A stretch of DNA of 64,000 nucleotides from a virus (lineage: Duplodnaviria > Heunggongvirae > Uroviricota > Caudoviricetes), in IMG/VR virus record IMGVR_UViG_2609459826_000002; one strand, given 5' to 3'. Each line of letters opens with the position of its first letter. Within the stretch, counting starts at the first letter, position 1. The notes below the pieces were generated by a model, which was not told the origin of the DNA, searched no databases, and saw only the letters and a program-made list of their open reading frames with translations. The translations under genes were made by a program, and so were the position numbers. Positions 4,621 to 51,919 of this stretch are shown piece after piece.

Positions 4621-4628
4621 GAGGATCC

Positions 4629-6397: not shown

Positions 6398-6399
6398 AC

Positions 6400-6600: not shown

Positions 6601-6649
6601 GATTCTTCACCCGTCAGAACAGGGGGCGCGGTTCCGCGCCCCTGAGTGA

Positions 6650-7855: not shown

Positions 7856-7869
7856 CGTATTTCTCCTGA

Positions 7870-8556: not shown

Positions 8557-9739
8557 CGGAGGGTTTCGTGGTCATGTTCATCGGTGTGAGATAGACATCA
8601 CCACCGGGACGCGGATTCATATCTTCCAGGTCGCGGCAGTCATTGGGAGAGTAAATTCCCCAATTGATCCCGGTAGCGTAGGCTTCAAAACGGGACTTCA
8701 TATCCCCGCGCAGTAAGGCCCCGGCGTTAAATTTGGCGTAATAAACGCCCTGCTTACTTTTTCGTACCAGTCCGGTGTTGATCCGCTGCTCAATGCGGGT
8801 CAGATACGGCACCAGTGAATAGTTGATAAATCCCAGCCCCAGCTCTTCGATATTGTTGAAGGTGGCGCGATCGGTGTTCTGCACCATGTGCAACGGCACC
8901 CGGAACAGACGACAGATTTCTTCAAGCTGAAACTTGCGGGTTTCCAGGAACTGGCTGTCCTCGGCGTTCAGCGCCATCGACTTCCAGTCCAGCCCCATCT
9001 CAAGGATCATCGGGCGGTGAGCATTGCCAAGCCCGGTGTGACGCTCCTCAAAATCTTTCTTCAGGCGCTCATAAGCCTGATCTGACAGCGTCTGCTCTGT
9101 ACGCAACACACCCGACGTCACCGCGCCATTGCTGAACAGTCTGGCCCCGTGCTCTTCGGTCGCAGCTGCCAGCGATATTGCCTCGCGGGCATAGGCGATG
9201 GGATTCAGCCCCACCAGACCGTCCAGCGTCAGCGTGCGCACATGCCAGATATCTTCCTGGCTCAGTACATCCGTAGAGCCGTCCGGGAATGTGACCTGAT
9301 AGACCGGCTCCCAGCTACTGTTAAGCTTCGGTACCACACAGCCGGGATCGACGGGCAGCAGTTCAGCCACTTCGCCAAATGCTTTCACTTTGTAGGCGTA
9401 AAAGTTTCCCCGCAGGCACAGACAGGTGACCACCAGCTCCCAGAACTCCTGCGGCGTCATATAGCCATTGGGATGCGTGGAGATCAGCTTATGCAGACGC
9501 TCGCCGGTGGCTCTCTGTTTCAGGCTGCCGTTCAGGTGATACAGATTGCAGGGCAACATCCCGACCGACTCTGCCAGCACCCTGACGCAGGAAAAAACCG
9601 CCGTCAGTCGCATGGCCCGCTGGCTGCTGATCTGCTTTCCGGTATAGGTGTCGTAGGACAACCCGATAGCATCCGCCAGCTCTGCTGGCGTGGTCACCGG
9701 TGCGTCACTTTTTCGTTGAAATAATCCCGAAAAGAACAC
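8498..9739 (-). CDS. phage portal protein
   Basis: 413 aa, between terminase large subunit and protease; ORF starts with GTG at 9739 (true start may be internal). Confidence 0.85.
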   Translation of the reverse strand: MFFSGLFQRKSDAPVTTPAELADAIGLSYDTYTGKQISSQRAMRLTAVFSCVRVLAESVGMLPCNLYHLNGSLKQRATGERLHKLISTHPNGYMTPQEFWELVVTCLCLRGNFYAYKVKAFGEVAELLPVDPGCVVPKLNSSWEPVYQVTFPDGSTDVLSQEDIWHVRTLTLDGLVGLNPIAYAREAISLAAATEEHGARLFSNGAVTSGVLRTEQTLSDQAYERLKKDFEERHTGLGNAHRPMILEMGLDWKSMALNAEDSQFLETRKFQLEEICRLFRVPLHMVQNTDRATFNNIEELGLGFINYSLVPYLTRIEQRINTGLVRKSKQGVYYAKFNAGALLRGDMKSRFEAYATGINWGIYSPNDCRDLEDMNPRPGGDVYLTPMNMTTKPSDGSKAGKQKDNANADETTS

Positions 9740-9921
9740 TATTTACCTCCGCCGACAGACGACTGTGTACGGTCGAGATATCGCGCCACCAGCCACGACC
9801 AGAACAGGCACAACGCCCCGGCAACAACAAACCCCGCCGGGGGATAAATCAGCCAGGCACCATACGCCAGCAAAAGCGCCCCCAGCACGCCCACCAGAGG
9901 CGCGAGAATCAGCATGATCAT
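9739..9921 (-). CDS. small membrane protein, unknown function
   Basis: 60 aa, two hydrophobic helices ([22 protein letters not shown] / [16 protein letters not shown]); ATG with GAGG RBS. Confidence 0.4.
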
Positions 9922-9932
9922 AATTACCTCAG

Positions 9933-11666
9933 TTAAAGCGAGCGGATCCCATAGGACTCAATGTGGTCAGACAACGTGTCTTCTTTCTCGTACAGCATGG
10001 CTCTGCCAACCGCCATAATCAGCGCAACTGCACCATCGATTTTGTTTTCCGCCTGCTCTTTGACGGGCTTCACCACATCATCGTTACCCGGAATGGTTTT
10101 GCCGACCACGTTGCCGATACACCAGGTCATGATGGGATTGCCATCATGATGAAAGCGCCCCGATTCAATTGCCGCTTCCAGCTCTTTCATCGGGTCGGAC
10201 ATGTTGGTGTAGTTCTGAATGATAGTGACGGGATTCAGGTCTTCATCAGCAAGGTCATGTGACAACCCGGTCGCCCCGAAGGGGTCGATGGGTGACTCAC
10301 TGACCGGGCTGATTTTGTTCGCCGCTTTGGCCTCCTCGAGGATGTAGCGATAATCCACCTCCGCACCATCGGTAACGGTCAGAACGCCCATTTCCACCCA
10401 TTTCTGAAAGCGTTCGGCTGTCCGGCGATCTTCATTTTTCTCGACGCTGTACACCGTGTCATACGGTACCCAGAAGCGCGGAGCCACACTGTAGTAATGC
10501 GTTTTACCGTCAATCTCGCGGGTATAAAGTCGCGCCATGCTGTTCATATCCAGCTTACGCGCCAGGTCAAAGGCCAGAATGCACGGTTGCCCCTCGAACT
10601 GTTCAAGGGTCAGTGATTTATCCTCGCAGCTCTGCCAGCTCACTAGGTTGAAATACGCCGAACGCGCCGACACCCAGATATTGAGGTGTTTTGTTTTAAA
10701 GACGTTTGCCAGACGGGCGTTATTTTTCGCACGCTGCTGCTGACTTAACAAAAATTCGCGATAAACCGACACGCCAATATTCGGGTTAGCTTTTTCCAGC
10801 ACCTGCGGGTCGGTCCAGTCATCGCCTTCGTCAACGGTATAGATGATCCCGAACAGTTCATCGTTGGGTACCGAACCGTTGAGCATCTCGATAACTTCCC
10901 GCCGCTTGTCGTAGCACGGCCCCTCAATGTTGTACCCGGCGGTGGTGATGGCCCACATCAGTGGCTGACGTCGCGCGCCCATCCCGGTAAGCATCGTGGT
11001 ATAAAGCGCATCGGTGGCGTGCTCGTGATATTCATCCACCACGGCACAGTGGGGTGATGAACCATCACCGGGGTTACCGATCAGCGGTTCAAACCGCGCG
11101 CCATCCTCCGGACGGTTCATGTTTGAGGCGTTAACCTCAATCCCGAACGCTTCCGTCAGCATGGGTGTGCGTTTACACATCAGTCGCGCCGGGCGAAAGA
11201 CTTCCCACGCCTGTTTCTCTGTCGTGGCACCGGAATACACTTCCGCGCCAAACTCGTTATCACAGGCAAAACAATACAGGGCAACACCGGCAGAGATTGC
11301 CGATTTGCCGTTCTTACGGGGGATTTCGGTATACCCCTCCCTGAAGCGGCGCAGCCGGGAGCCTTTATTGACCCAGCCAAACGCACAGCAGATCACAAAG
11401 AGCTGCCACGGTTCCAGCGTGATGGGCATCCTCTTGAATGCCCACTCCCCCTTGGTGTGTGGCAACAGCTGAATAAATTTCGCGGCCCGTTCAGCCAGGT
11501 CCTTGTCGAAGCGGTAACGAAACGACTTACTTTTTTCCGCCATCAGGTCATCAAGATGGCGCTGGCAGGCCTGAATCACAAACTGGCAGGCCACAATCTT
11601 TCCGCGCACGACATCACGGGCATACTGATTGGCAGCATTTACGTTGGGGTAAGATTTCCGGCTCAT
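9933..11666 (-). CDS. phage terminase large subunit
   Basis: 577 aa with ATPase (GKS) and nuclease regions; canonical position upstream of portal. Confidence 0.9.
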
Positions 11667-12157
11667 GATTCGATGATTTTCAGAAACTGGTTAGTGGCTT
11701 TCTTCTGCCCCGCCAGGCCAATCAGACGCTGGCGGCTGCTGGGGTCGAGTCCGAGCATTGCCCCCGTGCTGCTCATCTCGGACTCCTGTTCTTTCTTGGC
11801 GGTCAGCTCCGGATTTTTGACCATGCCACCCATTGCACCGGTGATGGTGTTGCCCTGTCTGGCAATATTTTTCACGGCACGCCGCCAGAACTCGTAGGCC
11901 ACGCACCACCGCTCAAGCACCGCGAGGTCAGTCACGCACAGCAGGCCCTGACCGCAGAGTTCTTTGGTTGTCAGTTGCCACATGATCGTGGCGAGAGGGA
12001 GATCTTCTTCAGCGAACCACTCCGGTGGCTCAACACCTTTGATGGGCGTAAAAACAGGTTCATCTTTATTCAGGGCTCGCTTGCCGGGGTTTCCGGCCAG
12101 CGCCTTGCGCGCCGTTGGCTTGGGGCGACGCCCGGAACGCCCCGCCGTTCCAGCCAT
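11663..12157 (-). CDS. phage terminase small subunit (P27-like)
   Basis: ORF track starts at a GTG (12166); ATG at 12157 has AGGAG RBS 8 nt upstream; overlaps terminase large start. Confidence 0.7.
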
Positions 12158-12282
12158 ATGCGGCACTCCTGGTTAAATTTCATTTTTCGCGGGTATAAAA
12201 AAACGATGGGGCGGGCAGTCCGGAAGACGTCAGGTCACAGGGATTTGACCCGCCCCTCCCCTCTGGCTGTGGGAACTGGTTC

Positions 12283-16103: not shown

Positions 16104-17270
16104 ATGGAATTGACCAAAAAAATGAGCAAAGCAAGCATACGCCACGTAATCGTTCATGAGCTCTTAAAAGAATCTAATAAAGACTTCGATCACTCCAAAC
16201 CATACAATCTTCGTGATACAGAACTAGATAAAACAAATGATATAGTAAAAAAATTAGTAGACGGTGTTATTGATTTGTATGGTTCAAAAGGGAACTCAGC
16301 GCATTATGGTGTTTTTATTAAAAATAAAACAAAGCAAGGCCCTATACCAGAACTATTTCATAAATACTCTTTAGTTCAACAATCTGTTTCAAGTGATTTC
16401 ATTGAATTATCGAAGGAAGTTATGAAACAAATGTATAAATCTGCTCAAGAGCAGATTTGGGCTTCTGGAGGATATGTTGTTTTTACTGATTATATTTTAT
16501 CTGGTTTCCGTTATCTATTGGTTACAATGATCAAAAAAACTAATGGCGTAACTATTAGTGAAAATTTAGAGCCAGAGGAAATGATTCACTTAGAACTTGG
16601 TAATATTAACCAAGCAGCAAAAATAAATTTCAGATATTATGAAGAATACCAAAAAGCAGATGACTTAAAAAAAACAGACTTAAGTTATCTAAGCTTTATA
16701 AGCAAAACTACGGGACAGTCAGCGGCAGCATATTTTATAGCAGCATTAGGATGTGACAAGGGGATTGCTTCAGCAGGTGCAACCCGTAAGTTACCAGATG
16801 AAATAAGGCGTTTCTTTAAGAAAGAACCTCTTTTAAAAAATCAAGCAGAGTCATTTAGAAATGATGTTATCAAATACTTAGAAAAGCAATTTGACAACGA
16901 GCACTCTGCAAGGCTTTCTGATATCGAATCGCTTGCTTCAGGCCATATGTCCGATTTAAAAGAGGAAGAAAAAACAGAACTTGTTGATAAATTAATGAAA
17001 CACCTCAATAGTGAGGAAGTCAGAATCCCATCAGAGTTCGTAATCAATAAAAACTCCTTAGATAAAATCCGCAATGTGATATATAAAACCCCATCATTGA
17101 GCTTTCACTTCGACAAGGATTTACTCGGTGTCACAACTGATGCTAAAATATATTATGATGACGAAAACCAAAGCCTAACATTTAATAATTTGCCTGTTGA
17201 AGCATTAACTAAGATAAGAAGAGCGTTGAAAGAAACTGATAACCCGAGTAATGAAGAAGATAAAGAATGA
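16104..17270 (+). CDS. NA37/YejK(NdpA)-like nucleoid-associated-family protein (cassette gene 1)
   Basis: 388 aa, AT-rich; motifs IRHVIVHEL, ASGGYVVFTDY...RYLLVTMIKK, ISENLEPEE, LSYLSFISK recall YejK family by eye; alternative start ATG 16122 (MSKASIRH); ATGA overlap with next gene. Confidence 0.6.
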   Translation: MELTKKMSKASIRHVIVHELLKESNKDFDHSKPYNLRDTELDKTNDIVKKLVDGVIDLYGSKGNSAHYGVFIKNKTKQGPIPELFHKYSLVQQSVSSDFIELSKEVMKQMYKSAQEQIWASGGYVVFTDYILSGFRYLLVTMIKKTNGVTISENLEPEEMIHLELGNINQAAKINFRYYEEYQKADDLKKTDLSYLSFISKTTGQSAAAYFIAALGCDKGIASAGATRKLPDEIRRFFKKEPLLKNQAESFRNDVIKYLEKQFDNEHSARLSDIESLASGHMSDLKEEEKTELVDKLMKHLNSEEVRIPSEFVINKNSLDKIRNVIYKTPSLSFHFDKDLLGVTTDAKIYYDDENQSLTFNNLPVEALTKIRRALKETDNPSNEEDKE

Positions 17271-18493
17271 ATGATTTTAGTATAATAGTTAATCTGTATA
17301 GATTATCAAGCTATCCTCATTTTGACGGGGCTAAGTTTTCTGCGCGTATAGCTTATAATGCAGACGTAAAATCATTGTTCAAAAGAATTTTGAACCCTAC
17401 TTTTCAAGCTGGTACAGCTGACGAAATAGAGGTGGATGGTCATTTAATTTATGATTATGAAGACTTTCCTGAAAAGGGAAATTTTCTTACATACTCGTTT
17501 AAAATTTCACAAGGAAGTGCGAATCGTTTTTATAAAAATAAAAACGAGTTTGTAAAAATAAACACGCTCAAGAAAGGCATAATGCCAGAGTATTTCTATA
17601 TTATAGAGGATGATTTCTATTCATTAGAAACACCAAAACCTTCTTATATCCAAAAAATTGAGGACATTTGTGAGCTAATCAATGCTCTTTCCATGCTTGC
17701 TCATTTCCATGATATAAAAAAAGATAGCAAAGGTACATTTTATCGTTTAGTCTTTATTTTAAACTCAGAGTCTAAATCTTCTTCTGCTGTAATTGAAACA
17801 AATATTACAGAAGAAATTTTTAATGATAAAACAGTAAATACTCAGTTAGTTAAAACATTAGTAAGTAGTGAAGCTACTACTGATGCCCATCACATTGAAA
17901 AGATTAACACTTTCAGAAACACAGTTATTGAGTATGTTAATAAAAATGGAAATTCCTTTGTCGAGTTAATTAACAAGTGGGATTTCATATGCGAACTTTA
18001 TACGAACAACTTAGCTGCTTATATGTCGGCATTTTCTTTTCATAAAGCAAGGAAAGAAGTTGTTGATGCTGAACTCGATTACTCAGAAAAACTGTCAAAA
18101 ATAATTTCAGAAATTTCTAACAAAGCTCTTGCAATACCTATTTCACTAGCTGGTTCAATTGCTATTTTCAAATTAACAACAAAAACTGATTGGATTATTG
18201 CTTTAATTGGATTGATTATCACAGCAATAATAACATCTGCAATGATTGTGTCACAAAAAAAACAACTCGCTCGTATTTCACACTCTAAAGAAATACTTTT
18301 TGGACAATTAAGATATAGAATAAAGGATGACACCAGCGATCTTAAAGAGAGCTTAGAAGAGGCTATTAAAAAATTAAATGACAATGAGGATTTTTGTCAT
18401 AAGGTGCTTGACAGTTTATTATCACTAGCATGGATGCCTACATTCATAGGCATCATCGGTATTTTATTTAAATTAATGCCAAATATTACTTGA
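17267..18493 (+). CDS. hypothetical protein with C-terminal three-helix membrane anchor (cassette gene 2)
   Basis: 408 aa, AT-rich, start overlaps stop of gene 1 (ATGA); hydrophobic helices near residues 288-305, 310-333, 385-403; no recognisable catalytic motif. Confidence 0.75.
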   Translation: MNDFSIIVNLYRLSSYPHFDGAKFSARIAYNADVKSLFKRILNPTFQAGTADEIEVDGHLIYDYEDFPEKGNFLTYSFKISQGSANRFYKNKNEFVKINTLKKGIMPEYFYIIEDDFYSLETPKPSYIQKIEDICELINALSMLAHFHDIKKDSKGTFYRLVFILNSESKSSSAVIETNITEEIFNDKTVNTQLVKTLVSSEATTDAHHIEKINTFRNTVIEYVNKNGNSFVELINKWDFICELYTNNLAAYMSAFSFHKARKEVVDAELDYSEKLSKIISEISNKALAIPISLAGSIAIFKLTTKTDWIIALIGLIITAIITSAMIVSQKKQLARISHSKEILFGQLRYRIKDDTSDLKESLEEAIKKLNDNEDFCHKVLDSLLSLAWMPTFIGIIGILFKLMPNIT

Positions 18494-26500: not shown

Positions 26501-26712
26501 CAAAACAGAGAAGAGCATCACCGGACGACGGGCTCATAACCCAATCCATCCGGGCGGCTGCCACCGCAGGTGTTCTTCTCTGTTTTGTGGAGAAACTAAC
26601 CGCCCCTACGGGGGCATTTATGGAAATGTAATTGACTCAATAATCGCCGGACGGTGAGGGCTTCCTTTTACCCGAATTCAGCGCGGTGCAGCGCATATAC
26701 GTGGAGAACAAA

Positions 26713-27249
26713 ATGTCATTTATTAAAACTTTTTCCGGGAAGCATTTTTATTATGACAGGATAAATAAAGACGAAATCGTTATTAACGATATCGCGGTTT
26801 CCCTTTCAAATATCTGTCGCTTTGCAGGACATCTTTCACACTTCTACAGTGTCGCCCAACATGCGGTGCTTTGCAGCCAGCTGGTGCCACAGGAATTTGC
26901 TTTTGAAGCTTTAATGCATGATGCAACAGAAGCATATTGCCAGGACATCCCCGCACCACTGAAACGACTTCTTCCTGACTATAAACGGATGGAAGAAAAA
27001 ATAGACGCCGTAATCCGTGAGAAATACGGGTTACCTCCTGTTATGAGCACGCCAGTGAAATATGCCGATCTCATTATGCTGGCAACCGAACGCCGCGATC
27101 TCGGGCTTGATGATGGCTCTTTCTGGCCTGTACTGGAAGGTATCCCGGCAACAGAGATGTTCAAAGTGATTCCACAGGCACCGGGCCATGCCTACGGGAT
27201 GTTTATGGAACGTTTTAACGAGTTATCGGAGTTACGCAAATGCGCATGA
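26713..27249 (+). CDS. HD-domain phosphohydrolase (YfbR/YfdR-like 5'-deoxynucleotidase)
   Basis: 178 aa from ATG 26713 (GGAGA RBS); H...HD motif (SVAQHAV...LMHDATEAY). Confidence 0.7.
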   Translation: MSFIKTFSGKHFYYDRINKDEIVINDIAVSLSNICRFAGHLSHFYSVAQHAVLCSQLVPQEFAFEALMHDATEAYCQDIPAPLKRLLPDYKRMEEKIDAVIREKYGLPPVMSTPVKYADLIMLATERRDLGLDDGSFWPVLEGIPATEMFKVIPQAPGHAYGMFMERFNELSELRKCA

Positions 27250-27602
27250 ATGTTTTCGAAATGGAAGGGTTTCTTCGTGGGAGATGTGTACCGCGAGATC
27301 TGAAAGTGAATGAAACAGATGCTGAATACCTGGTGCGTAAATTCGATACGCTTGAAGCTAAATGTGCAGCACAGGAAAACAAAGTAATACCAGTGTCAAC
27401 TGAACTGCCACCAGCAAATAAAAGTGCTTTGTTATTCGATGCTAACGGAGAAGGCTGGCTAATTGGCTGGCGTTCTCTCTGGTACACCTGGGGACAAAAA
27501 GAAACCGGAGAATGGCAGTGGACATTTCAGGTCGGGGACCTTGAAAACGTCAATATCACTCACTGGGCAGTAATGCCAAAAGCACCGGAGGCTGGAGCAT
27601 AA
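27246..27602 (+). CDS. hypothetical phage protein
   Basis: ATGA overlap with upstream gene; Trp-rich. Confidence 0.45.
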   Translation: MNVFEMEGFLRGRCVPRDLKVNETDAEYLVRKFDTLEAKCAAQENKVIPVSTELPPANKSALLFDANGEGWLIGWRSLWYTWGQKETGEWQWTFQVGDLENVNITHWAVMPKAPEAGA

Positions 27603-27907
27603 TGACCACTTTTACCGACAAAGAACTGATTAAAGAAATTAAAGAGCGTATCAGCAGCCTTGACGTGCGAGACGATATTGAGCGCCGTGCTTATGAAATC
27701 GCACTCCTATCTCTGGAAGTAGAACCAGATGAACGCGAAGCTTATGAATTATTCATGGAAAAGCGTTTCGGTGACTTAGTAGATCGTCGGAGAGCAAAAA
27801 ACGGCGATAACGAATACATGGCATGGGATATGACTCTCGGTTGGATCGTCTGGCAGCAACGAGCAGGTATCCATTTTTCAACAATGTCACAACAAGAGGT
27901 GAAATAA
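27602..27907 (+). CDS. hypothetical phage protein
   Basis: 101 aa, TAATG coupling on both sides. Confidence 0.45.
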   Translation: MTTFTDKELIKEIKERISSLDVRDDIERRAYEIALLSLEVEPDEREAYELFMEKRFGDLVDRRRAKNGDNEYMAWDMTLGWIVWQQRAGIHFSTMSQQEVK

Positions 27908-28257
27908 TGGAGCCATACAGCCTCACACTCGATGAGGCCTGTCATTTTCTCAAGATATCCAGACCGACTGCCATTAACTGGATACGCACAGGGCGTCTTC
28001 AGGCAACACGCAAAGATCCCACTAAGAATAAATCTCCTTACCTCACAACACGACAAGCCTGCATTGCGGCTCTTCAGTCTCCGCTGCATACTGTCCAGGT
28101 GAGCGCGGGTGATGGCATAACAGAGGAAAGAAAATGTCACTCTTCCGCAGAGGTGAAATATGGTACGCCAGTTTCACATTGCCGAACGGTAAAAGATTTA
28201 AACAGTCTCTTGGAACAAAGGACAAAAGGCAGGCGACAGAACTCCATGACAAGCTAA
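27907..28257 (+). CDS. xis: excisionase-like protein
   Basis: ATG 27907; [32 protein letters not shown]; immediately upstream of and overlapping integrase gene; 3' boundary uncertain. Confidence 0.5.
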
Positions 28258-29297
28258 AGGCTGAAGCATGGCGGGTCAGCAAACTTGGTGAAATACCTGA
28301 TATAACGTTCGAGGAAGCGTGTGTCAGGTGGCTTGAAGAGAAAGCACATAAAAAATCACTGGACGATGACAAAAGCCGGATCGGATTCTGGCTTCAACAT
28401 TTCGCAGGAATGCAACTAAGAGACATTACTGAATCAAAAATTTATTCAGCAATGCAGAAAATGACGAACCGGCGTCATGAGGAAAACTGGAAACTCAGGG
28501 CAGAAGCATGCAGAAAAAAAGGGAAACCTGTTCCAGAATACACGCCAAAACCAGCGTCCGTTGCAACGAAGGCTACGCATCTTTCATTTATAAAGGCCCT
28601 ACTAAGAGCCGCAGAGCGTGAATGGAAAATGCTGGATAAGGCACCAATTATTAAAGTGCCTCAACCAAAGAATAAACGGATCCGCTGGCTGGAGCCCCAT
28701 GAAGCACAAAGGCTGATTGATGAATGTCCGGAGCCATTAAAGTCTGTTGTTGAATTTGCACTGGCAACAGGCTTAAGACGCTCGAACATCATCAACCTTG
28801 AATGGCAACAAATAGATATGCAGCGCCGGGTGGCATGGATAAACCCGGAAGAGAGTAAATCAAACCGCGCAATCGGCGTTGCGCTGAATGATACTGCATG
28901 TCGCGTTTTGAAAAAACAAATCGGGAATCATCACCGTTGGGTATTTGTGTACAAGGAAAGCTGCACCAAACCAGACGGAACGAAAGCGCCAACAGTAAGG
29001 AAGATGCGGTATGACGCAAACACAGCCTGGAAAGCGGCGCTGAGACGGGCTGGTATTGATGATTTCAGATTTCACGACTTGAGACACACCTGGGCAAGTT
29101 GGCTGGTTCAAGCCGGAGTCCCGTTGTCAGTGTTACAGGAAATGGGAGGCTGGGAGTCTATCGAAATGGTTCGTCGATATGCTCACCTTGCACCTAATCA
29201 CCTTACCGAACACGCACGGCAAATAGACTCGATCCTGAACCCATCGGTCCCAAATTTGTCCCAGTCAAAAAATAAGGAAGGTACTAATGATGTGTAA
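28134..29297 (+). CDS. int: lambdoid tyrosine integrase (IntD/DLP12-like)
   Basis: 387 aa; near-identity to E. coli DLP12 IntD as recalled; catalytic region HDLRHTWAS...VRRYAHL; stop 15 nt before att core. Confidence 0.9.
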
Positions 29298-29311
29298 CTT
29301 ATTGATTTAAA

Positions 29312-29360
29312 TGGTGCCGATAATAGGAGTCGAACCTACGACCTTCGCATTACGAATGCG
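29312..29360 (-). other. attachment-site core: 49-nt copy of the 3' end of tRNA-Thr(CGU) (thrW-type), not a complete tRNA gene
   Basis: Minus strand reads CGCATTCGTAATGCGAAGGTCGTAGGTTCGACTCCTATTATCGGCACCA (anticodon loop with CGT, T-arm, acceptor 3' strand, CCA); sequence upstream of it does not continue the tRNA. Confidence 0.75.
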
Positions 29361-29542
29361 ACGTTATTATATTTTTACCCCTTTAAAAACCTACTCTTAA
29401 AACAAGTAATTCATTATAAAACATTGTGTTATGAAAAACACCTGTTGATAAAAATTGACAGGTGTTGATGTTTATTCCCCCATTTTACTTACACCAGCAG
29501 TTACATTATGGTGATGTAACATTTCTCATCTGGAGCCCCAAA

Positions 29543-30850
29543 ATGGCACTTCCAAGACAAAAACTCACCTTCGAGCGCATTCGAAAATTTGCTTTATCTG
29601 AAGGAAAAACCCAGGCATTTCTTTGGGATGCGGACGTAACTTCCCTGGCATGTCGGGCAACTCGCGGAACAAAAGCTTTTGTGTTCCAAAGCGTATATGC
29701 GGGAAAAACCCTTCGCATGACCATTGGCAACATTAACGATTGGAGGATTGATGATGCCAGGGCCGAAGCCAGGCGGCTGCAAACATTAATCGATACTGGG
29801 ATAGATCCGCGTATAGCTAAGGCAGAAAAAATTGCTGAAGCGGAATCACAGCAGGATGAATCTCGTAAAACGAAGGTAACCTTCACAAGCGCCTGGGAAG
29901 ATTACCTTGAAGAATTGAGAACCGGAATCAGCGCAAAAACTAAACGCCCATATTCTACTCGATACATTGCCGATCACATTAACTTGTCCAGCCGTGGAGG
30001 GGAAAGTAAAAAAAGAGGCCGGGGCCCAACCTCGGCTGGACCATTGGCTAGCTTACTCGACCTACCGTTATCGGAACTAACACCAGAGAACATTGCCGCA
30101 TGGCTAAGTACAGAGAGACAAAATCGGCCTACCGTCACTGCTCATGCCTACCGGCTGTTGCGTGCATTTATCAAATGGGCTAATTACCAGAAAAAATATC
30201 AGGGAATAATCCATGGCGATATTGCACAAGATCATAACGTGAGAAAAGTGGTTCCAGTATCAGCGAGTAAAGCGGGAGATTGCTTACAAAAAGAACAGTT
30301 AAAAATCTGGTTCAGTGCCGTACGTAGCCTCAATAATCCCATTGCATCGGCCTATCTCCAAGTACTTTTGCTCACCGGTGCACGGCGTGAAGAAATTGCG
30401 TCACTTCGGTGGTCTGACGTAGATTTCAAATGGTCAAGCATGAGGATTAAAGACAAGATCGAAGGCGAACGTATCATCCCTCTCACTCCTTATGTTTCTG
30501 AGCTGTTAAGTGCGCTAGCGCAATTCCCAAATTCTGACGTAAATAAGGAGGGTTGGGTTTTCAGAAGTAACAGCAAAAGTGGCAAAATTATTGAACCGCG
30601 TTCAGGACACAACAGAGCGTTAGCTCGAGCTGAGTTACCACATATCAGCCTTCACGGCTTACGCCGTAGTTTTGGCACTCTTGCTGAATGGGTTGAAGTG
30701 CCAACAGGTATTGTTGCTCAAATTATGGGACACAAACCAAGTGCACTGGCGGAAAAACACTACCGCCGTCGTCCGTTAGATCTGTTGCGCAAATGGCATG
30801 AAAAAATTGAGAGGTGGATCTTACAGCAAGCAAATATTGTAAAAAAATAA
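29543..30850 (+). CDS. int: P4-type tyrosine integrase
   Basis: 435 aa from ATG 29543 (GGAG RBS); catalytic motifs ...HGLRRSFGT...IMGHK...YRR; begins about 180 bp from tRNA fragment. Confidence 0.9.
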   Translation: MALPRQKLTFERIRKFALSEGKTQAFLWDADVTSLACRATRGTKAFVFQSVYAGKTLRMTIGNINDWRIDDARAEARRLQTLIDTGIDPRIAKAEKIAEAESQQDESRKTKVTFTSAWEDYLEELRTGISAKTKRPYSTRYIADHINLSSRGGESKKRGRGPTSAGPLASLLDLPLSELTPENIAAWLSTERQNRPTVTAHAYRLLRAFIKWANYQKKYQGIIHGDIAQDHNVRKVVPVSASKAGDCLQKEQLKIWFSAVRSLNNPIASAYLQVLLLTGARREEIASLRWSDVDFKWSSMRIKDKIEGERIIPLTPYVSELLSALAQFPNSDVNKEGWVFRSNSKSGKIIEPRSGHNRALARAELPHISLHGLRRSFGTLAEWVEVPTGIVAQIMGHKPSALAEKHYRRRPLDLLRKWHEKIERWILQQANIVKK

Positions 30851-30972: not shown

Positions 30973-31422
30973 ATGTCTAATTCTTTGATGAGTTCTGCGC
31001 AAACAAGCTCACAGGCTCGAATAGTACGAGCCGTGCGTAAGATCATAGTTGTTCGTTCGAGTAAGCAGCGACAAACCTGTGCTGAGTCCATATTTCAGGA
31101 AAGACAGATGAACATCAGGATTCGAGCTGCTCTTGGACACCTTAATGAAAAAAACTCTGTATACAAAAAAAACAATCGTGATAAAACTTTGGGAGTTTTT
31201 TTTGCACGTAACATCTCGCACAAAAATCAGGCCGAAAACTCGCAAGGTAATGCGTCTAAATCAACTAAAAGTACCTCATCCGGTTCAAGCGAAGGTAGTG
31301 ACCCTGACCCTGAGGCTTATTCAAGCTTGAATTTTTCGTTTTCTTTTTGGTCCTTTCTTTCCCTTTTAATTTCATTACTCTTTGTATATGCCTGCATCTC
31401 AATCATTGAGGTGGTAGCATGA
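30973..31422 (+). CDS. hypothetical low-complexity protein with C-terminal hydrophobic helix
   Basis: 149 aa, AGGAG RBS, Ser/Lys-rich, C-terminal FSFWSFLSLLISLLFVYACISII; AT-rich. Confidence 0.35.
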   Translation: MSNSLMSSAQTSSQARIVRAVRKIIVVRSSKQRQTCAESIFQERQMNIRIRAALGHLNEKNSVYKKNNRDKTLGVFFARNISHKNQAENSQGNASKSTKSTSSGSSEGSDPDPEAYSSLNFSFSFWSFLSLLISLLFVYACISIIEVVA

Positions 31423-31640
31423 GCATATATGAGCAATCTAAAACACCTCTATCTGAGCTTGTTTCCACAGGTGAGTTAGCACATCTACTAAATCTTAAAG
31501 CCCAAACAATTAGAAAATGGCTTTGCCAAGACAAACTGCCTAATGGTTTACCGCGCCCCAAGAAAATTAACAGCCGACATTATTGGTTACGCAAAGACAT
31601 TGATAGATTCCTATTAACCTTCTCAGCATTTTGTAACTAA
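31419..31640 (+). CDS. AlpA-family phage/island regulatory protein
   Basis: 73 aa; LSELVSTGELAHLLNLKAQTIRKWLCQDKLP typical AlpA HTH; GAGGTGG RBS. Confidence 0.8.
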   Translation: MSIYEQSKTPLSELVSTGELAHLLNLKAQTIRKWLCQDKLPNGLPRPKKINSRHYWLRKDIDRFLLTFSAFCN

Positions 31641-34225: not shown

Positions 34226-37200
34226 TTAGACTGTCCAGCTGTTCGACACCACTTCTGCCTGCTTCAAAATCAGTTCCACGGCGCCCGGCGTTTTGTCCGG
34301 CGGATACTTATACTTACGCAGCGTCTGGCGCACCAGAATACGCAATCGGGCACGCACGCTTTCACGCACCTGCCAGTCCACGGTGGTGGACTGCCGCAAT
34401 TTCAATGTCACTTCGATGGCCAGCTTTCTCAGCGTATCATCGCCCAGTTCACGCACTGCACTTTCATTTTCAGCCAGCGCATCATAGAAGGCGATTTCAT
34501 CCGGGGTCAGCCCCAGCGCATCATCACGCGCCATCGCCTCCTGGAACGCTTTCGCCATCTGGATCAGCTCTTCAATCACCTGCGCGGTCTCAATGGCGCG
34601 GTTATTGTATTTGAGCAGCACCGCTTTCAGTCGGTCGGAGTATTTCTTCTGCTGCACCACGTTATTGCCCGAACGGGCATGAATGCCGTCATTGAGCAGT
34701 TTTTCCAGCAGTTCCACTGCCAGATTACGCTGCGGCATTTCCCGCACTTCTTCCAAAAACTCATCGGACAGCAAACCTATGTTCGGTTTATCCAGCCCGG
34801 CGAGTGCGAAGACATCCTCAACCCCGGTCGCGACAACCGCGTTATCGAGGATCTTGCTCAGCAGAGAGTTTTTTTCTGACTGGCTAAACTTTGCCTTCGG
34901 ATCGAGCTTGATAAGCCCCACCCTGACCGCCGAAAGAAACGCGAACTCCTCCTGTAAGGGTTTCGCCTCATCCAGCGTATTACACAGTGACCAGGCTTTA
35001 CTCATCGCCAGCGAAACATCGAGGTAGCGTTTTTTACCGTCATCCAGCCCCAGAATATAGTTCACCGCATCGCGTAAGAACGCTAACGGGTCGCGAGAAA
35101 AACCTGCGTAACTGAAGCCGGGTTTTCCTGCCGAGGGCGCAAACATCCCATGAATAATGTCGATTTTTTCCAGCAGAATGGCAAAGGCTTCCCGGGCATC
35201 GACCGTGGACTGCCCTTTGCCTTTTGAGTCGGTATAGGTTTTCAGCGCCTGCTTCAGCTCGTTGGCAATGCCGATGTAATCGACCACCAGCCCGCCGGGC
35301 TTATCGCGGAACACGCGGTTAACACGCGCAATGGCCTGCATCAGGTTGTGGCCACGCATCGGCTTGTCGATATACATGGTGTGGCAGCACGGCGCGTCAA
35401 ACCCAGTCAGCCACATATCCCGCACAATCACCAGTTTCAGCGGGTCATTTAGATCTTTAAAGCGGGCTTCCAGGCGTTTTTTGGTCTGTTTGTTGTAGAT
35501 ATGCGATTGCAGATGATCTTTATCTGACGCTGATCCGGTCATGATGACTTTGATCGCCCCTTGTTCAACGTCTTCACTGTGCCATTCAGGGCGTATCGCC
35601 ACGATGGCATCGTACAGTTTCACGCAGATCTCGCGGCTCATGGCGACAACCATCGCCTTGCCGTTCATGGCAGTGTTACGTGTTTCAAAATGCTGAACCA
35701 GATCGGCGGCGACCTGCTGAATACGTGGCTCTGAACCGACCAGCTTTTCCAGACGGCTCCAGTCACCTTTGGTTTTCTCCTGCTGGCCGGTCTCTTCATC
35801 TTCCACCAGCTCATCCACCTGATCGGAGAGCGTTTCCAGCTCCTCATGGTTCAGGTCGAGCTTTGCCAAGCGGGATTCGTAGTAAATTGGCACCGTCGCG
35901 CCGTCATCCACCGCATCCTGAATATCGTAGATCGAGACATAATCACCGAACACGGCACGGGTATCTTTATCTTCAGACGCAATCGGTGTACCGGTAAAGC
36001 CCATAAACGACGCATTCGGTAGCGCATCGCGCATATGCTTGGCGTAGCCGTATTTATAGGCCCCGGTTTGCCGGTCCAGCGTGGCGCTCAGGCCATACTG
36101 GCTACGGTGCGCTTCATCGGAAATCACCACGATGTTGCTGCGTGAGTTAAGTGCCGGATGGCTCTGCTCGTTGTCCAGAGGCGCAAACTTTTGCACAGTG
36201 GTAAAGATAATGCCGCCGGATTCACGGGCATTGAGCAGTTCGCGCAATTCGTCACGGTCATTAGCCTGTAACGGCGTTTGCTTGAGTAAATCCTGCGCCT
36301 GGCAAAACGTGGCATAGAGCTGCCCGTCGAGATCGTTACGATCCGTCACCACCACGATGGTCGGGTTGTTCATCTCCGCCTGTTGCAGCAGCTTTCCGGC
36401 GTAACAGCACATGGAGATACTCTTGCCAGAGCCCTGGGTATGCCACACCACGCCTGCTTTTTTACTGCCCGGCTGGATGTTACTCCGTAATGGCAGATAT
36501 TTGCCGGTAGACGCCACAATCGTCGCCGCAACCGCTTCACGCACCGCGTGGAACTGATGGTATGCGGCAATCTTTTTGATAAGCCGTTTGCCATCGTTTT
36601 CAAACAGCACAAAGAAACGAATGTAATCGAGCAGCAGTTCGCGATTAAAGAAGCCCTGCACTACCGTTTTAAGCTGCCAGTCAAACTGCGGCTTGTCGTC
36701 TTCGTTAGCCACGGTTTTCCACGGCAGGAAACGCTCTTCATCGGCGGTCAGCGAGCCGATACGCGCATTCTGCCCGTCGCTTACCACCAGCGCTTCATTG
36801 CAGATAAACAGGTCGCTCAGTTCGTTTTTATAGGTCTGTAGCTGGTTAAACGCCGCCCAGATATCGGCACTGGCATCAATCGGGCTTTTCAGCTCAAGCA
36901 CCGCCACCGGCAGGCCGTTGATATAGCCAATCACATCCGGGCGACGTACCTGTTTTATGCCCTGAATCGCCACCTGATTGACCACCATAAAGCGGTTATT
37001 GGCGGTGCGGTTAAAATCCATCAGCAGCGCTTTATCGTGGATAACCTTGTCTTCCTGCTTGTACTCAACGGGCACACCGTCGAGCAGCAGATGATGGAAG
37101 GCTTTGTTGCTGACGACAAGATCCGGGCTTTGGGCATGGGCGATACGCAGTATCACCTCTTCCAGCACGGCAACAGGGAGATGGGGATTGATGGTTTGCA

Positions 37201-37357
37201 GTTGCTCCAGCATCACCGGGCGAAGAAACACATCATGAAAGGAAGCACGCAACGGGTTGTCGCCATCCGGCGCAATATCTGGCCCGTGCAGCACTTCCCA
37301 GCCCTGTACAGCAAACCATTGCAGGCACTGCTGTTCTAAATCGTCTTCGCTTAGCAT
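34226..37357 (-). CDS. hsdR: type I restriction enzyme R subunit (HsdR)
   Basis: 1043 aa; helicase motifs ([10 protein letters not shown] Walker [15 protein letters not shown] box); ATG with GAGGAAG RBS; shares 1 nt with upstream gene stop. Confidence 0.9.
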
Positions 37358-38544
37358 CAGGCTTCCTCTGTCTCAGGATCGTCCGCTTCTTCCGGTACGT
37401 TGGATATCTCTTTCAACGCCATATTCAGTGGCGCAATAAAGGGATCGAGCGCTTTTTCAAACGCCGTCAGGTTAACCAGCAGCCAGTCGATCATCGCTGG
37501 CCAGTTGCTCTCATCAAGGTTGGTAGCAGGTGTGGCAAAGGAGATTCGGCAGGATTTTTTGCCTGGCAGCGGTTCCCACTTCAGCGCATGACCAAATGTC
37601 TCTTCAATCGCCGCTTTACGCTCATACAGCCAGTTATAGGCAAAGGTGTTGCTCTCTGCCGAGGATTTGGCAATCCAGAACTCAACGCGAGTTTCTTTCT
37701 TACTAAAAATCATATTGTAAGAAAGTGCGCTGATACCCGAACCGGCACTAAGCCAGTGGTCTGTTGACGGGCTGATATTGTTGTACAGCGTGCAGGAACT
37801 GGCTTTCAGACGCTCCAGCATTTTGGTCCAGAAAGCTTTGCGCAGCAGATGGCGGGTTTTCAGCTCGCCGCTGGTGGACTGCTCTTCGGCTTCTTTCTGC
37901 GCCATGCCGATCATGAAGGATTCGGCTTCCGGCGTCGGGATCACCTGGCGAATATCAACGAAAACATCATCGTTGAATTTGTATGGTTTCACCTTAAAGC
38001 ACTGCACACGCAGGCCAAACTGCATCAACCATAGCGCGGTATTGGTGACCTCTTTGCGGAAGCTCGCCGCCACCATCATCACCCTCTGGGTGCGGCTCTG
38101 GTTAATTTGCACTTCATCCAGGCTTTCACACTCCAGAAACTCCGCCATCACCTCTGCCGCCGGACGGGTCTCTTCCGGTTCGTATTTATCGAGATAGAGT
38201 TGGAAGATGTCCAGAATCTGTTCTTTACGCAGATTGGCGCAGTAACCGGCGTATTTCAGCGCCTGCCACACTACGTCACGCCCGGAGTCATCGAGCTTAT
38301 TTTCGATGATCACCAAATTGCGCTGTTTATCGATAGCCAGCAGGTCGAGGCGCTCTTTGGTGTCGTCAAAACCGGCGAACTCTTTCTGGATAATCAGCAG
38401 TTCATCATCGTTATCGCGGGTCAACGCCTGGGGATTTTTTGCCAGCCACTCCTGCAGGTGATAGCGCTCGGTATAACCGAGGCTGCTAAAAGACACCTCC
38501 TGCAACGAGTGCAGGCTATTGGTTGGCATATCGACTTTATACAT
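37357..38544 (-). CDS. uncharacterised protein encoded inside the type I R-M operon; PD-(D/E)xK/NucS-like motif
   Basis: 395 aa; overlaps hsdS stop by 8 nt and hsdR start by 1 nt; motif [23 protein letters not shown] resembles D...E.K nuclease core; no Walker A. Confidence 0.7.
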
Positions 38545-39955
38545 TTTCCGCCTCGCTTACCGCCTGCTCGGCTTCCGGCAGGGTGATTTCACCGGAGAGG
38601 AGTTTGGGGAGAAGGGTGTCTCGGATATTTTTTAATAACACCGTTTGTTTTTTACGCTGAACTACCCCGTTGATTATGGTTTTACAATGATCTTCAAATT
38701 TTTTTACTAGTTTAAAATCAGGTGCTACTAACTCAATATTTTTCAGATGAGATGATGGCCTGGCAATAGAAGGAACACCTACTTGCGAGGCGTTTGATAA
38801 TAATAGATGTTGTCCTGTCCGCGATCTAAAGAAATATAGCAAATAATAAGGAGATATTAGTTTTTTGTCTGCACGCAAAAAGAACTGTCGCTGAGATATA
38901 ACATAACGTTCATATTCTGAAAATTCAGGAATGATTGAAACCTGCCCTATACTCCCTGCATGCGTAAAAATGATATCTTCGCTAAATACATTTGAGCTTT
39001 TCAATTTATCGGCATGTTCGAGTGTAATAAAATTATTCTCACCATCATTAAGAATAGATTCTTTTAAATGCTGCCCACTAATTATAGGAATACCTTCATC
39101 AACAAAGGTGGATACCTTAATATTTGAACCAAATGGCCCCATTCCAATTTTACTAGTCAATTCTTCAGTTTTAACAACCGCCCATCCCTTTGGAATATCC
39201 CTCCCCTCGCTCTCCTGCATCGCCGATGGAAACAGCTCTGCTGTGGCTTTTAATTGAGCATATTGCTCAGGGTGTTCACGCTCAAAAACCACCAACGCAT
39301 CAGAATCTTTCCCGGAAATCGCTGTCATAGCGGCAAGCATCGCGTCTTCCTGCGAACCGCCCGCTTCCAGTGCTGTGATTTTGGCTTTTACCGGTTCAAA
39401 ATCGACAAACCAGCTTTTGAACAGGGCTTGCGCCATTTGTTCGAGAGTATGGTTGATTTGATGATTTAATAAAATTTTATCGTCGAATTTCTTTAAAACA
39501 TCACCTGCAAATTTCCTTAATCTTTTGTCAGGGAAATCATATTCATAATCGGCTAATGATTGCCATGCAACGCGTTGACGTCCAGAAGTTCCTTCCATTC
39601 TGGATCGAGCAAATGAACGGAATTCCCCAAGGCGTGAGAGATAATAAATATAATCACTATCGTACTCAGGCTCTTTTGCAGCTAAAACGATAAATTCCGT
39701 TGAACCAAAAGCAACCTCACCATCCGATAAACCGGAAACAAGCGATGTTTTACCATTTTCAAGACAAGGTGTTATACGAGCAAACAAGGTGTCTTTATTT
39801 GCAAATTTTGAACCGCCACCGGTGAAGATTTTTTCATCAACTCTATTTATATCTCTACCATTTTCGGGAAGTGCGGCCATTTCAACAAAGGCTGCACTTT
39901 CTCCTTTTTTTAGTGGGCGCTTTGGATTAAAAATAACCAAATCAGATAATTTCAT
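38537..39955 (-). CDS. hsdS: type I R-M specificity subunit (HsdS)
   Basis: 472 aa with two target-recognition domains around central conserved repeat; overlaps hsdM stop; second TRD region markedly AT-rich. Confidence 0.85.
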   Translation of the reverse strand: MKLSDLVIFNPKRPLKKGESAAFVEMAALPENGRDINRVDEKIFTGGGSKFANKDTLFARITPCLENGKTSLVSGLSDGEVAFGSTEFIVLAAKEPEYDSDYIYYLSRLGEFRSFARSRMEGTSGRQRVAWQSLADYEYDFPDKRLRKFAGDVLKKFDDKILLNHQINHTLEQMAQALFKSWFVDFEPVKAKITALEAGGSQEDAMLAAMTAISGKDSDALVVFEREHPEQYAQLKATAELFPSAMQESEGRDIPKGWAVVKTEELTSKIGMGPFGSNIKVSTFVDEGIPIISGQHLKESILNDGENNFITLEHADKLKSSNVFSEDIIFTHAGSIGQVSIIPEFSEYERYVISQRQFFLRADKKLISPYYLLYFFRSRTGQHLLLSNASQVGVPSIARPSSHLKNIELVAPDFKLVKKFEDHCKTIINGVVQRKKQTVLLKNIRDTLLPKLLSGEITLPEAEQAVSEAENV

Positions 39956-41654
39956 AACCCAGCCCCCCCAGATTCGCCTTAATCTGTGCTTCCAGGTTCG
40001 CGCTCTCTTCCAACTGATCTTTCAGTTGCGCCGTCAGTCGTGCCATCTTCTCGGCAAAGGGCTCATCATCTTCGTCCTGCTCGGCAGCACCGACATAGCG
40101 ACCTGGGGTCAGGACAAAGTCATTTTTCTTTATATCTTCCAGCGTTGCGGCGAAGCAGAATCCCGCTTCATCTTCATAGTCTTTATCCGTCTGCCATGAA
40201 TGGAAGGTGTCGGCAATTCTGGCGATATCTTCACGGCTAAAATCACGCAACACGCGATCTTTCATATAACCAATCTGGCGCGCGTCTATAAACAGTACTT
40301 CACCTTTACGGTGTGCTTTGCCGTTGCCACCAGATTTATCTTTGGTCAGAAACCAGATGCAGGCCGGGATTTGGGTGTTGGTAAACAGTTGCCCTGGCAG
40401 CGCCACCATACATTCCACCAGATCCGCTTCAATCAGGTTGCGGCGGATTTCGCCTTCATTGTTGGTGTTGGAACTCATTGAGCCGTTCGCCAGCAGCAGA
40501 GCCATCGAACCTTTTGGCGCGAGGTGGTGGATCATGTGCTGCATCCACGCAAAGTTGGCGTTGCCCTGCGGCGGCGTACCATATTTCCAGCGCACGTCGT
40601 TTTCCAGCTTCGCGTTCCACCACTCCTTCATGTTGAACGGCGGGGTTGCCATCACGAAGTCGGCACGCAGATCCGGGTGCTGGTCGTCCAGCAGGGTATC
40701 GGCGTTTTTGCTGCCGAAGTTAAAGTCGATACCCCGGATCGCCATATTCATCGCCGCCAGCTTCCAGGTGGTCGGGTTGGACTCTTGGCCGTAAACGGAG
40801 ATATTGCGCTTCTGCTCGGCGGCGTTGTACTGCTTCTCGCCCGCGTGCTCTTCGATAAAACGGTCGCTGGAAACAAAGAACCCGCCGGAACCCATCGCCG
40901 GGTCATACACGCGCCCGTTATACGGTTGCAGCATTTCAACAATCAGGGTGACGATACTTTTTGGCGTGTAATACTGGCCGCCCTGCTTACCTTCCGCCAG
41001 CGCGAACTGACCGAGGAAATATTCGTACACGTGACCGAGAATATCTTTGCTCTTTAAGTTGAGCTTCTCGCCGTTATATTCCGGGTTGCTGAAGTTGGCG
41101 TCAGAGAAAGTATTAATCAGCCCGGTCAACACTTCGTTGCCCAATTGATACTGGCTGATACGGTTCAGAATACCTTTCAGCTTCGGGTTGGTTTTTTCGA
41201 TTTCATCGAGCGCGTTATCCACCAGCCAGGACACAGAGCGCAGCGTCACATCCTTGCCGGTGGTTTCATCCACCCACAGCACGGTGCCGGTCGGCAACAT
41301 GGCTTTGTTTTTCAGCGTGTCCCAGCGCGCGGCTTTCGGCACCCAGAAGATGTTCTTTTCGGTGTAGTAATCTTCCACCTCCAGTTCATCCACAATCGCC
41401 TGTGCGTACTCTTCATCAGAGTCGTAACCGTCGCGCGACATGGCATAGATGTTGTCCGGGTTGCCGACATCGCGGAACAAGGTGATTAGCTCCTGCTGAC
41501 GCGCCTCGAAGGCATCGGACACATACTTGAGGAAGATAAGCCCCAGCACCACGTGCTTGTAGTTGGCGGCATCCATGTTGGCGCGTAGCTTGTCGGCGGC
41601 TTTCCAGAATTTGTTATCCAGCTCGTTCAGGAACTGTTGTTCGGCGTTGTTCAT
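39942..41654 (-). CDS. hsdM: type I R-M DNA methyltransferase (HsdM)
   Basis: 570 aa from ATG 41654 (GAGGA RBS); N6-adenine MTase motifs (DPAMGSGGFF; ATPPFN). Confidence 0.9.
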   Translation of the reverse strand: MNNAEQQFLNELDNKFWKAADKLRANMDAANYKHVVLGLIFLKYVSDAFEARQQELITLFRDVGNPDNIYAMSRDGYDSDEEYAQAIVDELEVEDYYTEKNIFWVPKAARWDTLKNKAMLPTGTVLWVDETTGKDVTLRSVSWLVDNALDEIEKTNPKLKGILNRISQYQLGNEVLTGLINTFSDANFSNPEYNGEKLNLKSKDILGHVYEYFLGQFALAEGKQGGQYYTPKSIVTLIVEMLQPYNGRVYDPAMGSGGFFVSSDRFIEEHAGEKQYNAAEQKRNISVYGQESNPTTWKLAAMNMAIRGIDFNFGSKNADTLLDDQHPDLRADFVMATPPFNMKEWWNAKLENDVRWKYGTPPQGNANFAWMQHMIHHLAPKGSMALLLANGSMSSNTNNEGEIRRNLIEADLVECMVALPGQLFTNTQIPACIWFLTKDKSGGNGKAHRKGEVLFIDARQIGYMKDRVLRDFSREDIARIADTFHSWQTDKDYEDEAGFCFAATLEDIKKNDFVLTPGRYVGAAEQDEDDEPFAEKMARLTAQLKDQLEESANLEAQIKANLGGLGYEII

Positions 41655-41994
41655 GAAAATCCTCAGGGGCGATCGCAGCGATAGTGCAAACATGCCTATC
41701 TTAAATTGGGTTTTGGAATGCTAATCGCAAAATGATACCCGGAATGACTAGGTTCATAAACGAGATAGCGCAAAGAAGTGGAAGATGGGCTATGGCTAAG
41801 TTGACATTAAGTTCCGGGCCTCAAGCAGACGTCTCAACGTTGTCTCGCGAATATGCCAAATTATTCCGCAGCAGATGCTCAGCCCTACGGATTGACAGTC
41901 TATATTACTCTCCAAACAGTCTTCATTTACCTTCGGTTTTACGATACATGTCTGGTCGGTTGATCTGCCAGACAAAGTCTGGTCGGTTCAACGG

Positions 41995-51592: not shown

Positions 51593-51919
51593 ATGACTAA
51601 AAATACACGTTTTTCCCCCGAGGTCCGTCAACGGGCAGTTCGTATGGTTCTGGAAAGTCAGGGCGAATATGACTCACAATGGGCGGCAATTTGTTCCATT
51701 GCCCCAAAGATTGGCTGTACACCAGAGACTCTGCGTGTGTGGGTTCGTCAGCATGAGCGGGATACCGGGAGTGGTGATGGTGGACTCACCACCGCTGAAC
51801 GTCAGCGTCTGAAAGAGCTGGAACGTGAAAATCGTGAACTGCGCCGCAGTAACGATATCCTTCGCCAGGCTTCCGCTTATTTTGCGAAGGCGGAGTTCGA
51901 CCGCCTCTGGAAAAAATAA
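51593..51919 (+). CDS. IS3-family transposase OrfA (IS629-like)
   Basis: 108 aa HTH/leucine-zipper OrfA; A6 frameshift window at orfA/orfB junction. Confidence 0.8.

Follow-up and report, generated by a model that had tools for sequence, protein, structure and literature searches.

In our reading, to which we assign a probability of about 0.93, the locus around the two neighbouring integrase genes is the inner boundary at which two unrelated integrative elements meet in a tandem array at the thrW gene of E. coli. The stretch of 64,000 nucleotides analysed here (the window) corresponds to positions 4082-68081 of the 68,081-nt draft contig JNPJ01000107.1 (GCA_000703665.1), which ends in IS1 at the right and runs for a further 4 kb on the left. 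An earlier note, made from the letters of the window, had proposed that a prophage and a P4-type island integrated serially at one tRNA gene. This proposal is borne out by the boundaries of the two att cores, by solo occurrences of the elements and by the array in the complete genome ECONIH4. The analysis shows what the two integrases and the two cores are, where the cores begin and end, and that a complete relative contains the whole array. The features on which the argument rests are as follows.

1-29357, no strand: part of an SfII/SfV-like prophage, recognised by DNA identity to the SfII group; it continues past the left window edge
27907-28257, plus strand: prophage excisionase gene xis (PF12728 HTH_17; phrog_2907 excisionase, E = 1e-50; xis in the SfII and SfV records)
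28134-29297, plus strand: prophage tyrosine integrase, an SfII/SfV (P22-type) Int of 387 aa (PF00589)
29312-29360, minus strand: displaced 3' fragment of thrW, tRNA-Thr(CGU), 49 nt, the predicted common middle att copy (exact thrW match)
29361-64000, no strand: partial CP4-6-like genomic island, recognised by gene content; it continues past the right window end into IS1
29361-29542, plus strand: island-side att arm and intF upstream region, 31% G+C (alignment of nine intF-linked loci and the window)
29437-29466, plus strand: lineage-specific inverted repeat or hairpin (9-bp arms, 12-nt spacer; 13-bp stem with G-U pairs)
29543-30850, plus strand: intact IntF-type (CP4-6) tyrosine integrase of the P4-like family, 435 aa (PF13356 and PF00589)
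31419-31640, plus strand: small HTH protein, ykgV/AlpA-like, 73 aa (PF12728 HTH_17; phrog_66)

The centre of the junction is the tRNA fragment. The minus-strand copy of the last 49 nt of tRNA-Thr(CGU) described in the earlier note is exact: positions 29312-29360 on the plus strand are the reverse complement of thrW positions 28-76 including CCA, with 49/49 nucleotides identical. The fragment begins at the second anticodon-stem base and ends with CCA, and the anticodon loop TTCGTAA gives the anticodon CGU. The note was also right that no 5' half accompanies it, as the 27 nt on the 5' side of the fragment resemble thrW at chance level only and ARAGORN finds no tRNA in the whole 64 kb. The 49-mer occurs a single time in the window when up to three mismatches are permitted, and so do 25- and 29-nt sub-patterns of it; shuffled sequence gave no match to any of these patterns. 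A second copy of the thrW core was sought with the same patterns (at most three mismatches) and with 14- and 15-nt seeds, and none was detected in the window. That the window contains neither a tRNA nor another copy of the core is consistent with the note's prediction of an intact thrW outside it.

The Rfam tRNA model scores 29.7 bits at this position, just at its gathering score of 29, and the match is restricted to model positions 9-63. It is composed of the fragment and an AT-rich stretch mimicking a D-arm, and the acceptor stem is absent. Because the Rfam match is partial and lacks the acceptor stem, the 5' half of thrW is missing and ARAGORN is negative, we conclude that the fragment is not a gene, and the candidate of a real tRNA was ruled out. 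An automatic pipeline might flag the fragment as a tRNA. The borderline Rfam score could also be taken in favour of a tRNA pseudogene, in which the 5' half was deleted from a once-intact gene, instead of a duplication by integration. This explanation is extremely unlikely and close to negligible, for the boundaries of the fragment equal known att cores to the nucleotide (46 nt in SfII and 49 nt in ptwF, the published name of the K-12 thrW fragment; PMC13170351), and the DNA on its 5' side has homology to the arm upstream of intF at all intF loci that were examined.

The element to the left of the fragment carries Mu-like tail and HK97-type head genes, a lambdoid early region and the int-proximal end of a prophage. 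Positions 377-24394 have 97% identity to Escherichia phage vB_EcoM-689R6, and the head and tail genes, which are myovirus-type structural genes, are about 97% identical to those of SfII, SfI and SfIV over 377-12263; the window also matches SfV. A tape-measure gene is located at 371-2203, so the prophage must extend beyond the left end of the window. A look-up with this gene retrieved prophages of other genomes that are related to this one; none of them had a thrW core within 10 kb. In the int-xis region (26600-29357), the DNA identity rises to 99.0% with SfII and is 98.3-98.5% with SfIV and SfV. The identity to SfII ends exactly at 29357, which is the 46th nucleotide of the fragment and the end of the attP core of this phage group, and records of related phages label the core spot attP, 'tRNA-like fragment' or 'P22 attP site'. 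Int matches PF00589 with E = 3e-48 over profile positions 1-171 of 172, and its translation contains the motifs TGLRRS, HDLRHT and RRYAH of the R...HxxR...Y signature. The earlier note had placed the lambdoid integrase gene 15 nt before the fragment; the adjacency holds, and the gap after the int stop codon measures 14 nt, the fragment starting at the 15th nucleotide.

The closest known systems for this half are the Shigella flexneri serotype-converting phages SfII, SfV, SfI, SfIV and SfX, with which it shares 98-99% DNA identity in int-xis and the 46-nt core 14 nt after int. Phages of the SfII/SfV group integrate at thrW downstream of proA (PMC3306764). The identical Int protein is very common, and in 10/10 other contigs read its gene lies 14 nt from the complete 76-nt thrW, followed by proA-proB-phoE. 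In a canonical lysogen of this group, int abuts intact thrW and proA, whereas here it abuts the displaced fragment of another element. In the SfII/SfV group, gtrA-gtrB-gtr(type), which modify the O-antigen and define serotype conversion, adjoin attP; in the prophage state they are expected at the distal end, outside the window and the contig.

To the right of the fragment, the intF ATG is found at 29543, 182 nt past the fragment, close to the spacing of about 180 bp given in the earlier note for a P4-type integrase gene; the open frame also reaches an upstream GTG at 29462. The encoded protein matches PF13356 (Arm-DNA-bind_3, typically the N-terminal domain in P4-like integrases) with 43.4 bits against a cut-off of 27 and the catalytic domain PF00589 with 58.6 bits, contains the motifs TGARRE, HGLRRS and EKHY (R...HxxR...Y), and is identical to K-12 IntF in 394/435 residues (91%). 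An exact-protein look-up returned this IntF from one contig only, JNPJ01000107.1. Both members of the tandem carry a tyrosine integrase gene of their own, both matching PF00589. Pairwise comparison of Int and IntF gave no significant similarity (E = 1.6), so that the description of two integrases of different families in the earlier note is a fair one. The coordinates in that note deviate by no more than one or two nucleotides. Neither the int nor the intF reading frame is interrupted in the window; the intF genes most closely related to this one, those of MB52 and ECONIH4, carry a frameshift or an interruption.

After intF, the island encodes a yagN-like ORF, the small HTH gene and a YagK/YfjJ-family gene, together with cargo comprising a type I R-M system, raf and scr sugar genes, IS elements and a group II intron. 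The matches of the far part elsewhere are mobile raf and scr modules in other chromosomal contexts. The HTH protein (31419-31640) occupies the position of K-12 ykgV and has a weak match to phrog_66, 'excisionase and transcriptional regulator' (E = 2e-6); it is a candidate excision factor or regulator of the island.

The order yagN-like gene, small HTH gene after intF and the YagK/YfjJ-family gene are shared with CP4-6 of K-12, as are the 91% identical IntF, an identical 49-nt fragment about 180 nt upstream of intF and in the opposite orientation to it, and a homologous arm. In K-12 strain C600, the intact tRNA-Thr gene lies about 34 kb from the fragment, at the other end of CP4-6 beside proA-proB, and the other side of the fragment is chromosomal, with paoC, paoD and a LysR pseudogene. 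Two differences separate our locus from CP4-6. The K-12 cargo consists of yag/afu genes instead of the R-M, sugar and insertion modules listed above, and the K-12 fragment adjoins chromosomal DNA (yagP'/paoD), whereas the fragment in the window adjoins a prophage.

The two cores can be separated within the fragment. Positions 29312-29357 are the 46-nt phage core, and 29358-29360 are the three extra nucleotides of the 49-nt core of the IntF type. SfII shows the 46-nt boundary too, as does the ECONIH4 prophage at its distal end. The 49-nt boundary lies beside intF in K-12 (strain C600), and it is identical there and in eight other E. coli loci. Serial integration is supported by these boundaries, since the SfII identity stops at the 46-nt core while the 49-nt boundary and the island arm match the intF-ptwF region of K-12. 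Judged from the sequence, the fragment is a hybrid att site common to both elements: 46 nt belong to both cores, the next three nucleotides and the AT-rich arm are those of the island, and the 14-nt spacer with int is that of the phage. P4 itself, at leuX, has a short att core in the T-loop/acceptor region, a property of P4 and not of the whole integrase family, and it is not matched here, where the identity block of 49 nt begins in the anticodon stem. With this block starting at tRNA position 28, the core class is anticodon-centred in the scheme of Islander, whose term covers targets from the anticodon stem to the 3' end (PMC4383910).

We searched for the same arrangement in other genomes. 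The int/fragment/intF junction was found in 8/5426 complete E. coli genomes, with junction identities of 89-90%, or 95.7% in one match covering 80% of the junction, and the two sides of the junction have different best matches. The exact pair of int and intF was not present in any complete E. coli genome searched, the best full-junction matches being those at 89-90%. The intF-fragment unit adjoins the chromosomal paoD flank in K-12 (strain C600), VE-V10-F, ET245 and AW1.7. In MB52, a different P4-like satellite integrase is located at the same fragment; LD39-1 has a truncated prophage there and Z0117EC0056 an integrase remnant.

The complete relative ECONIH4 (NZ_CP026399) displays the entire array, including the further att copies that the earlier note had proposed to look for. 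A 46-nt copy comes first, and the 40-kb SfV-like prophage behind it has int at its end. A 49-nt copy then separates int from intF, which is a pseudogene in this genome; next come the 44-kb island, in which scr genes are present, the intact tRNA-Thr gene and proA-proB. Both fragment copies are co-oriented with thrW. The full architecture and the element types are the same as in our locus. ECONIH4 differs in the junction identity of about 90%, in the internal stop codon of intF, in the arrangement of its island, and in a third island (of the ykfI-yafW type) beyond the prophage.

One could instead imagine that both integrases belong to one composite element, mobile only as a whole, with the tRNA fragment as an internal relic, given that the integrase genes are 245 nt apart and that the combination recurs in several genomes. 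We regard this as exceedingly unlikely. Each half is found alone, Int at intact thrW-proA and intF at the paoD flank, and MB52 has another partner at the fragment. The junction identities in the other genomes and the different best matches of its two sides also speak against a single unit, as do the outer att sites, which bear arms of different elements. Two independent elements are indicated by their occurrence alone, by the other partners at the same spot and by the whole array in ECONIH4.

Another concern is the assembly, because the source is a draft contig ending in IS1 and the junction sits on a 46-49-nt repeat whose core is expected three times in the genome. The contig could have been mis-joined across this repeat, with both elements still at thrW, for instance in the order flank, fragment, intF island, core, prophage and intact thrW; the position of the identical Int beside intact thrW, not beside the fragment, in all ten other contigs would fit such an order. 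However, eight complete E. coli genomes have this int/49-nt/intF junction as well, and its occurrence in closed genomes makes a mis-join highly unlikely. The 49-nt repeat is also shorter than an ordinary sequencing read, and even a wrong join would leave both elements in tandem at thrW.

In the mechanism that we propose for this array, Int would recombine a 46-nt attP core whose sequence equals that of the thrW 3' end, and IntF would use a 49-nt core that covers this part of the tRNA as well, beginning in the anticodon stem and ending with CCA. With every integration, the core copy of the incoming element would restore an intact tRNA and the previous 3' part would be displaced. The later element would have recombined with either of the two core copies that the earlier one had created, which would make the 49-nt fragment a shared hybrid att site, with the phage arm and int on its 3' side and the island arm with the intF upstream region on its 5' side. 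By this scheme, the intact thrW next to proA would lie beyond the far end of the island, and a second 46-nt copy would be expected about 10 kb to the left of the window start, outside the contig. For the source genome, these other att copies and the intact thrW rest on K-12, on ECONIH4 and on the general mechanism.

We rejected the idea of reading the order of arrival from the sequence. The island may have come first and the phage then inserted at the distal fragment, or the phage may have come first and the island then inserted at intact thrW; either history leads to an identical sequence, down to the 46/49-nt boundaries, so the order is not deducible. Either element could leave by itself. 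Int and Xis could excise the prophage alone, which would create a K-12-like junction of flank, fragment and intF, and IntF, perhaps together with the HTH protein, could excise the island alone, which would create the frequently seen junction of int, intact thrW and proA.

We also inspected the 182-nt spacer between the fragment and intF. The alignment of intF upstream variants revealed GTTGAT-containing direct repeats 20 nt apart (29438-29449 and 29458-29469) and a block TTTACTTACACCAGCnGTTACATTA, each kept in all aligned variants; they are plausibly arm-type or promoter elements. A sigma-70-like promoter was sought in the spacer without a match beyond chance. The earlier note had described an inverted repeat of 7-nt arms around 13 nt at 29440-29466. 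A repeat is indeed present in front of intF, and its measure has to be corrected to 9-bp arms and a 12-nt spacer at 29437-29466, with the arms AACACCTGT at 29437-29445 and ACAGGTGTT at 29458-29466. Folded as plus-strand RNA, it forms a 13-bp hairpin of -16 kcal/mol (z = -4.7).

Such a repeat could be a functional palindromic operator, or a terminator shielding intF from read-through of int. The strong plus-strand hairpin is followed by a T-rich run and is flagged by a terminator scan, the repeat overlaps the conserved GTTGAT repeats, and its local chance probability is about 0.04, an equally good inverted repeat arising in 3.6% of randomisations of the 182-nt spacer. Across the window, however, 44 overlapping 9-mer inverted-repeat matches of the same grade were counted. 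Among the variants aligned, the repeat is intact in the window, MB52 and ET245 only, and in ET245 no phage adjoins the fragment. VE-V10-F has a weakened repeat with two changes in one arm and no compensating change, and the K-12 and ECONIH4 types of intF upstream region lack it altogether (z = -0.6 and -0.9). After aligning and folding several intF upstream variants, we rejected a conserved regulatory palindrome. An operator or terminator role at 29437-29466 is unlikely, and the palindrome is not an established functional part.

Neither the kind of arrangement nor the elements that compose it are new. In E. coli, thrW ranks with the tDNA sites most frequently targeted by integration (PMC7545054), and tandem integration of SfI and SfX at thrW was produced in the laboratory and demonstrated by PCR and sequencing (PMC3306764). 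Island finders have a standard category for tandem arrays in which every member has one integrase and one tDNA fragment (PMC4383910, PMC7192596). The mechanism of tandem tDNA arrays has been described as well, and mixed arrays are covered in general terms (PMC7192596). Our locus has in common with the SfI and SfX lysogen and with the Islander/TIGER arrays the presence of two adjacent elements at one tRNA gene and a shared internal att copy, which results when the second element enters an att site of the first. It differs from SfI and SfX, which have the same kind of integrase, by integrases of unrelated subfamilies and cores of 46 and 49 nt.

Since the two cores overlap almost completely, with the 46 nt inside the 49 nt, cross-talk between the elements at the hybrid att site is conceivable. 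Induction of the phage, through Int/Xis or read-through of int, might set off or prevent the excision of the IntF island, and the hairpin at 29437-29466 might act as an insulator. We consider this very unlikely; if it were true, the island would behave like a phage-dependent satellite.

The locus opens no new question, and its value lies mainly in annotation. The boundary between prophage and island is fixed to the nucleotide. The analysis also accounts for a tRNA model that just reaches its threshold here without any gene. The tandem array of two independent elements also predicts two products of separate excision. For E. coli, it is one more example of a known pattern, in which the thrW hotspot accumulates tandem arrays via a leftover att copy.

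The similarity between phage and chromosome does not stop at the CCA end of the tRNA but extends beyond it (window positions 29292-29311, compared with 2499-2518 and 2999-3018 of the E. coli loci L010 and L001, respectively). The phage sequence over this interval, GTGTAACTTATTGATTTAAA, which takes in the stop codon of the prophage int gene, differs by 1 nucleotide from the chromosomal thrW trailer adjoining ptwF, the 49-nt thrW 3' fragment, in VE-V10-F, a genome without the phage; against K-12 the difference is 4 nucleotides. Because the similarity runs past CCA, the effective attP/attB identity block can, judged from these alignments, reach about 65 nt.

The thrW fragment also attracts a marginal match to the Rfam tRNA model at 29323-29379 on the minus strand (29.7 bits against a gathering score of 29), which is made up of the 3' fragment and AT-rich island DNA mimicking a D-arm. 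This match is a probable cause of false tRNA or pseudo-tRNA annotation. On the opposite strand, shortly 3' of the phage int stop codon, lies the sequence antisense to the tRNA anticodon arm, TCGCATTACGAATGCGA (29345-29361, plus strand), which folds as a stem-loop with a UACG loop. Candidate TadA-dependent A-to-I editing has been reported for the antisense RNAs of K-12 thrW and ptwF (mBio 2026, PMC13170351), where validation of the ptwF antisense site by Sanger sequencing was unsuccessful. In the window, this candidate TadA substrate would likewise be present in the int 3' trailer.

Inside the prophage, we observed a two-gene insert oriented opposite to the neighbouring genes:
16104-18493, plus strand, insert containing the two genes below
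within the insert, plus strand, gene for a YejK-like nucleoid-associated protein (PF04245, phrog_3767)
within the insert, plus strand, gene for a 408-aa protein (phrog_5023, a function-unknown phrog)
Searches of Pfam and PADLOC returned no match for the 408-aa protein, and the insert could represent a moron, or else a candidate defence/exclusion module.

The island carries the following features:
34226-41693, minus strand, type I restriction-modification operon (hsdR, hsdS, hsdM and one additional gene)
37357-38544, additional gene within the hsd operon, encoding a DUF4268 and PD-(D/E)XK protein
42297-64000, cargo modules: raffinose (raf) genes, sucrose PTS (scr) regulon and IS1
51874-51990, within the cargo, IS3-family frameshift pseudoknot (ALIL)
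52990-54513, within the cargo, reverse transcriptase of a group II intron, with domain V/VI at 54517-54603
The additional hsd-operon protein matches PDC-S11, a PADLOC candidate defence family (E = 2.5e-174). The cargo has a mosaic structure built from mobile modules, and copies with approximately 99% identity occur on numerous other chromosomes and plasmids of E. coli. Compared with the complete genome ECONIH4, the window has the scr block, together with the ATP-binding-protein gene, in inverted orientation, and the IS1 with which the contig ends truncates this gene.

The second element next to the intF-proximal 49-nt fragment is a different one in other E. coli genomes, as found by comparing loci from strains MB52 (L003, 2647-4077), Z0117EC0056 (L014, 1-2749) and MS6192 (L013, 1-2577). 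One such element is a P4-like satellite that encodes its own integrase and carries an Icd-like gene; another contains an integrase remnant along with a reverse transcriptase. The displaced 49-nt fragment is therefore itself a landing site that has been used repeatedly.
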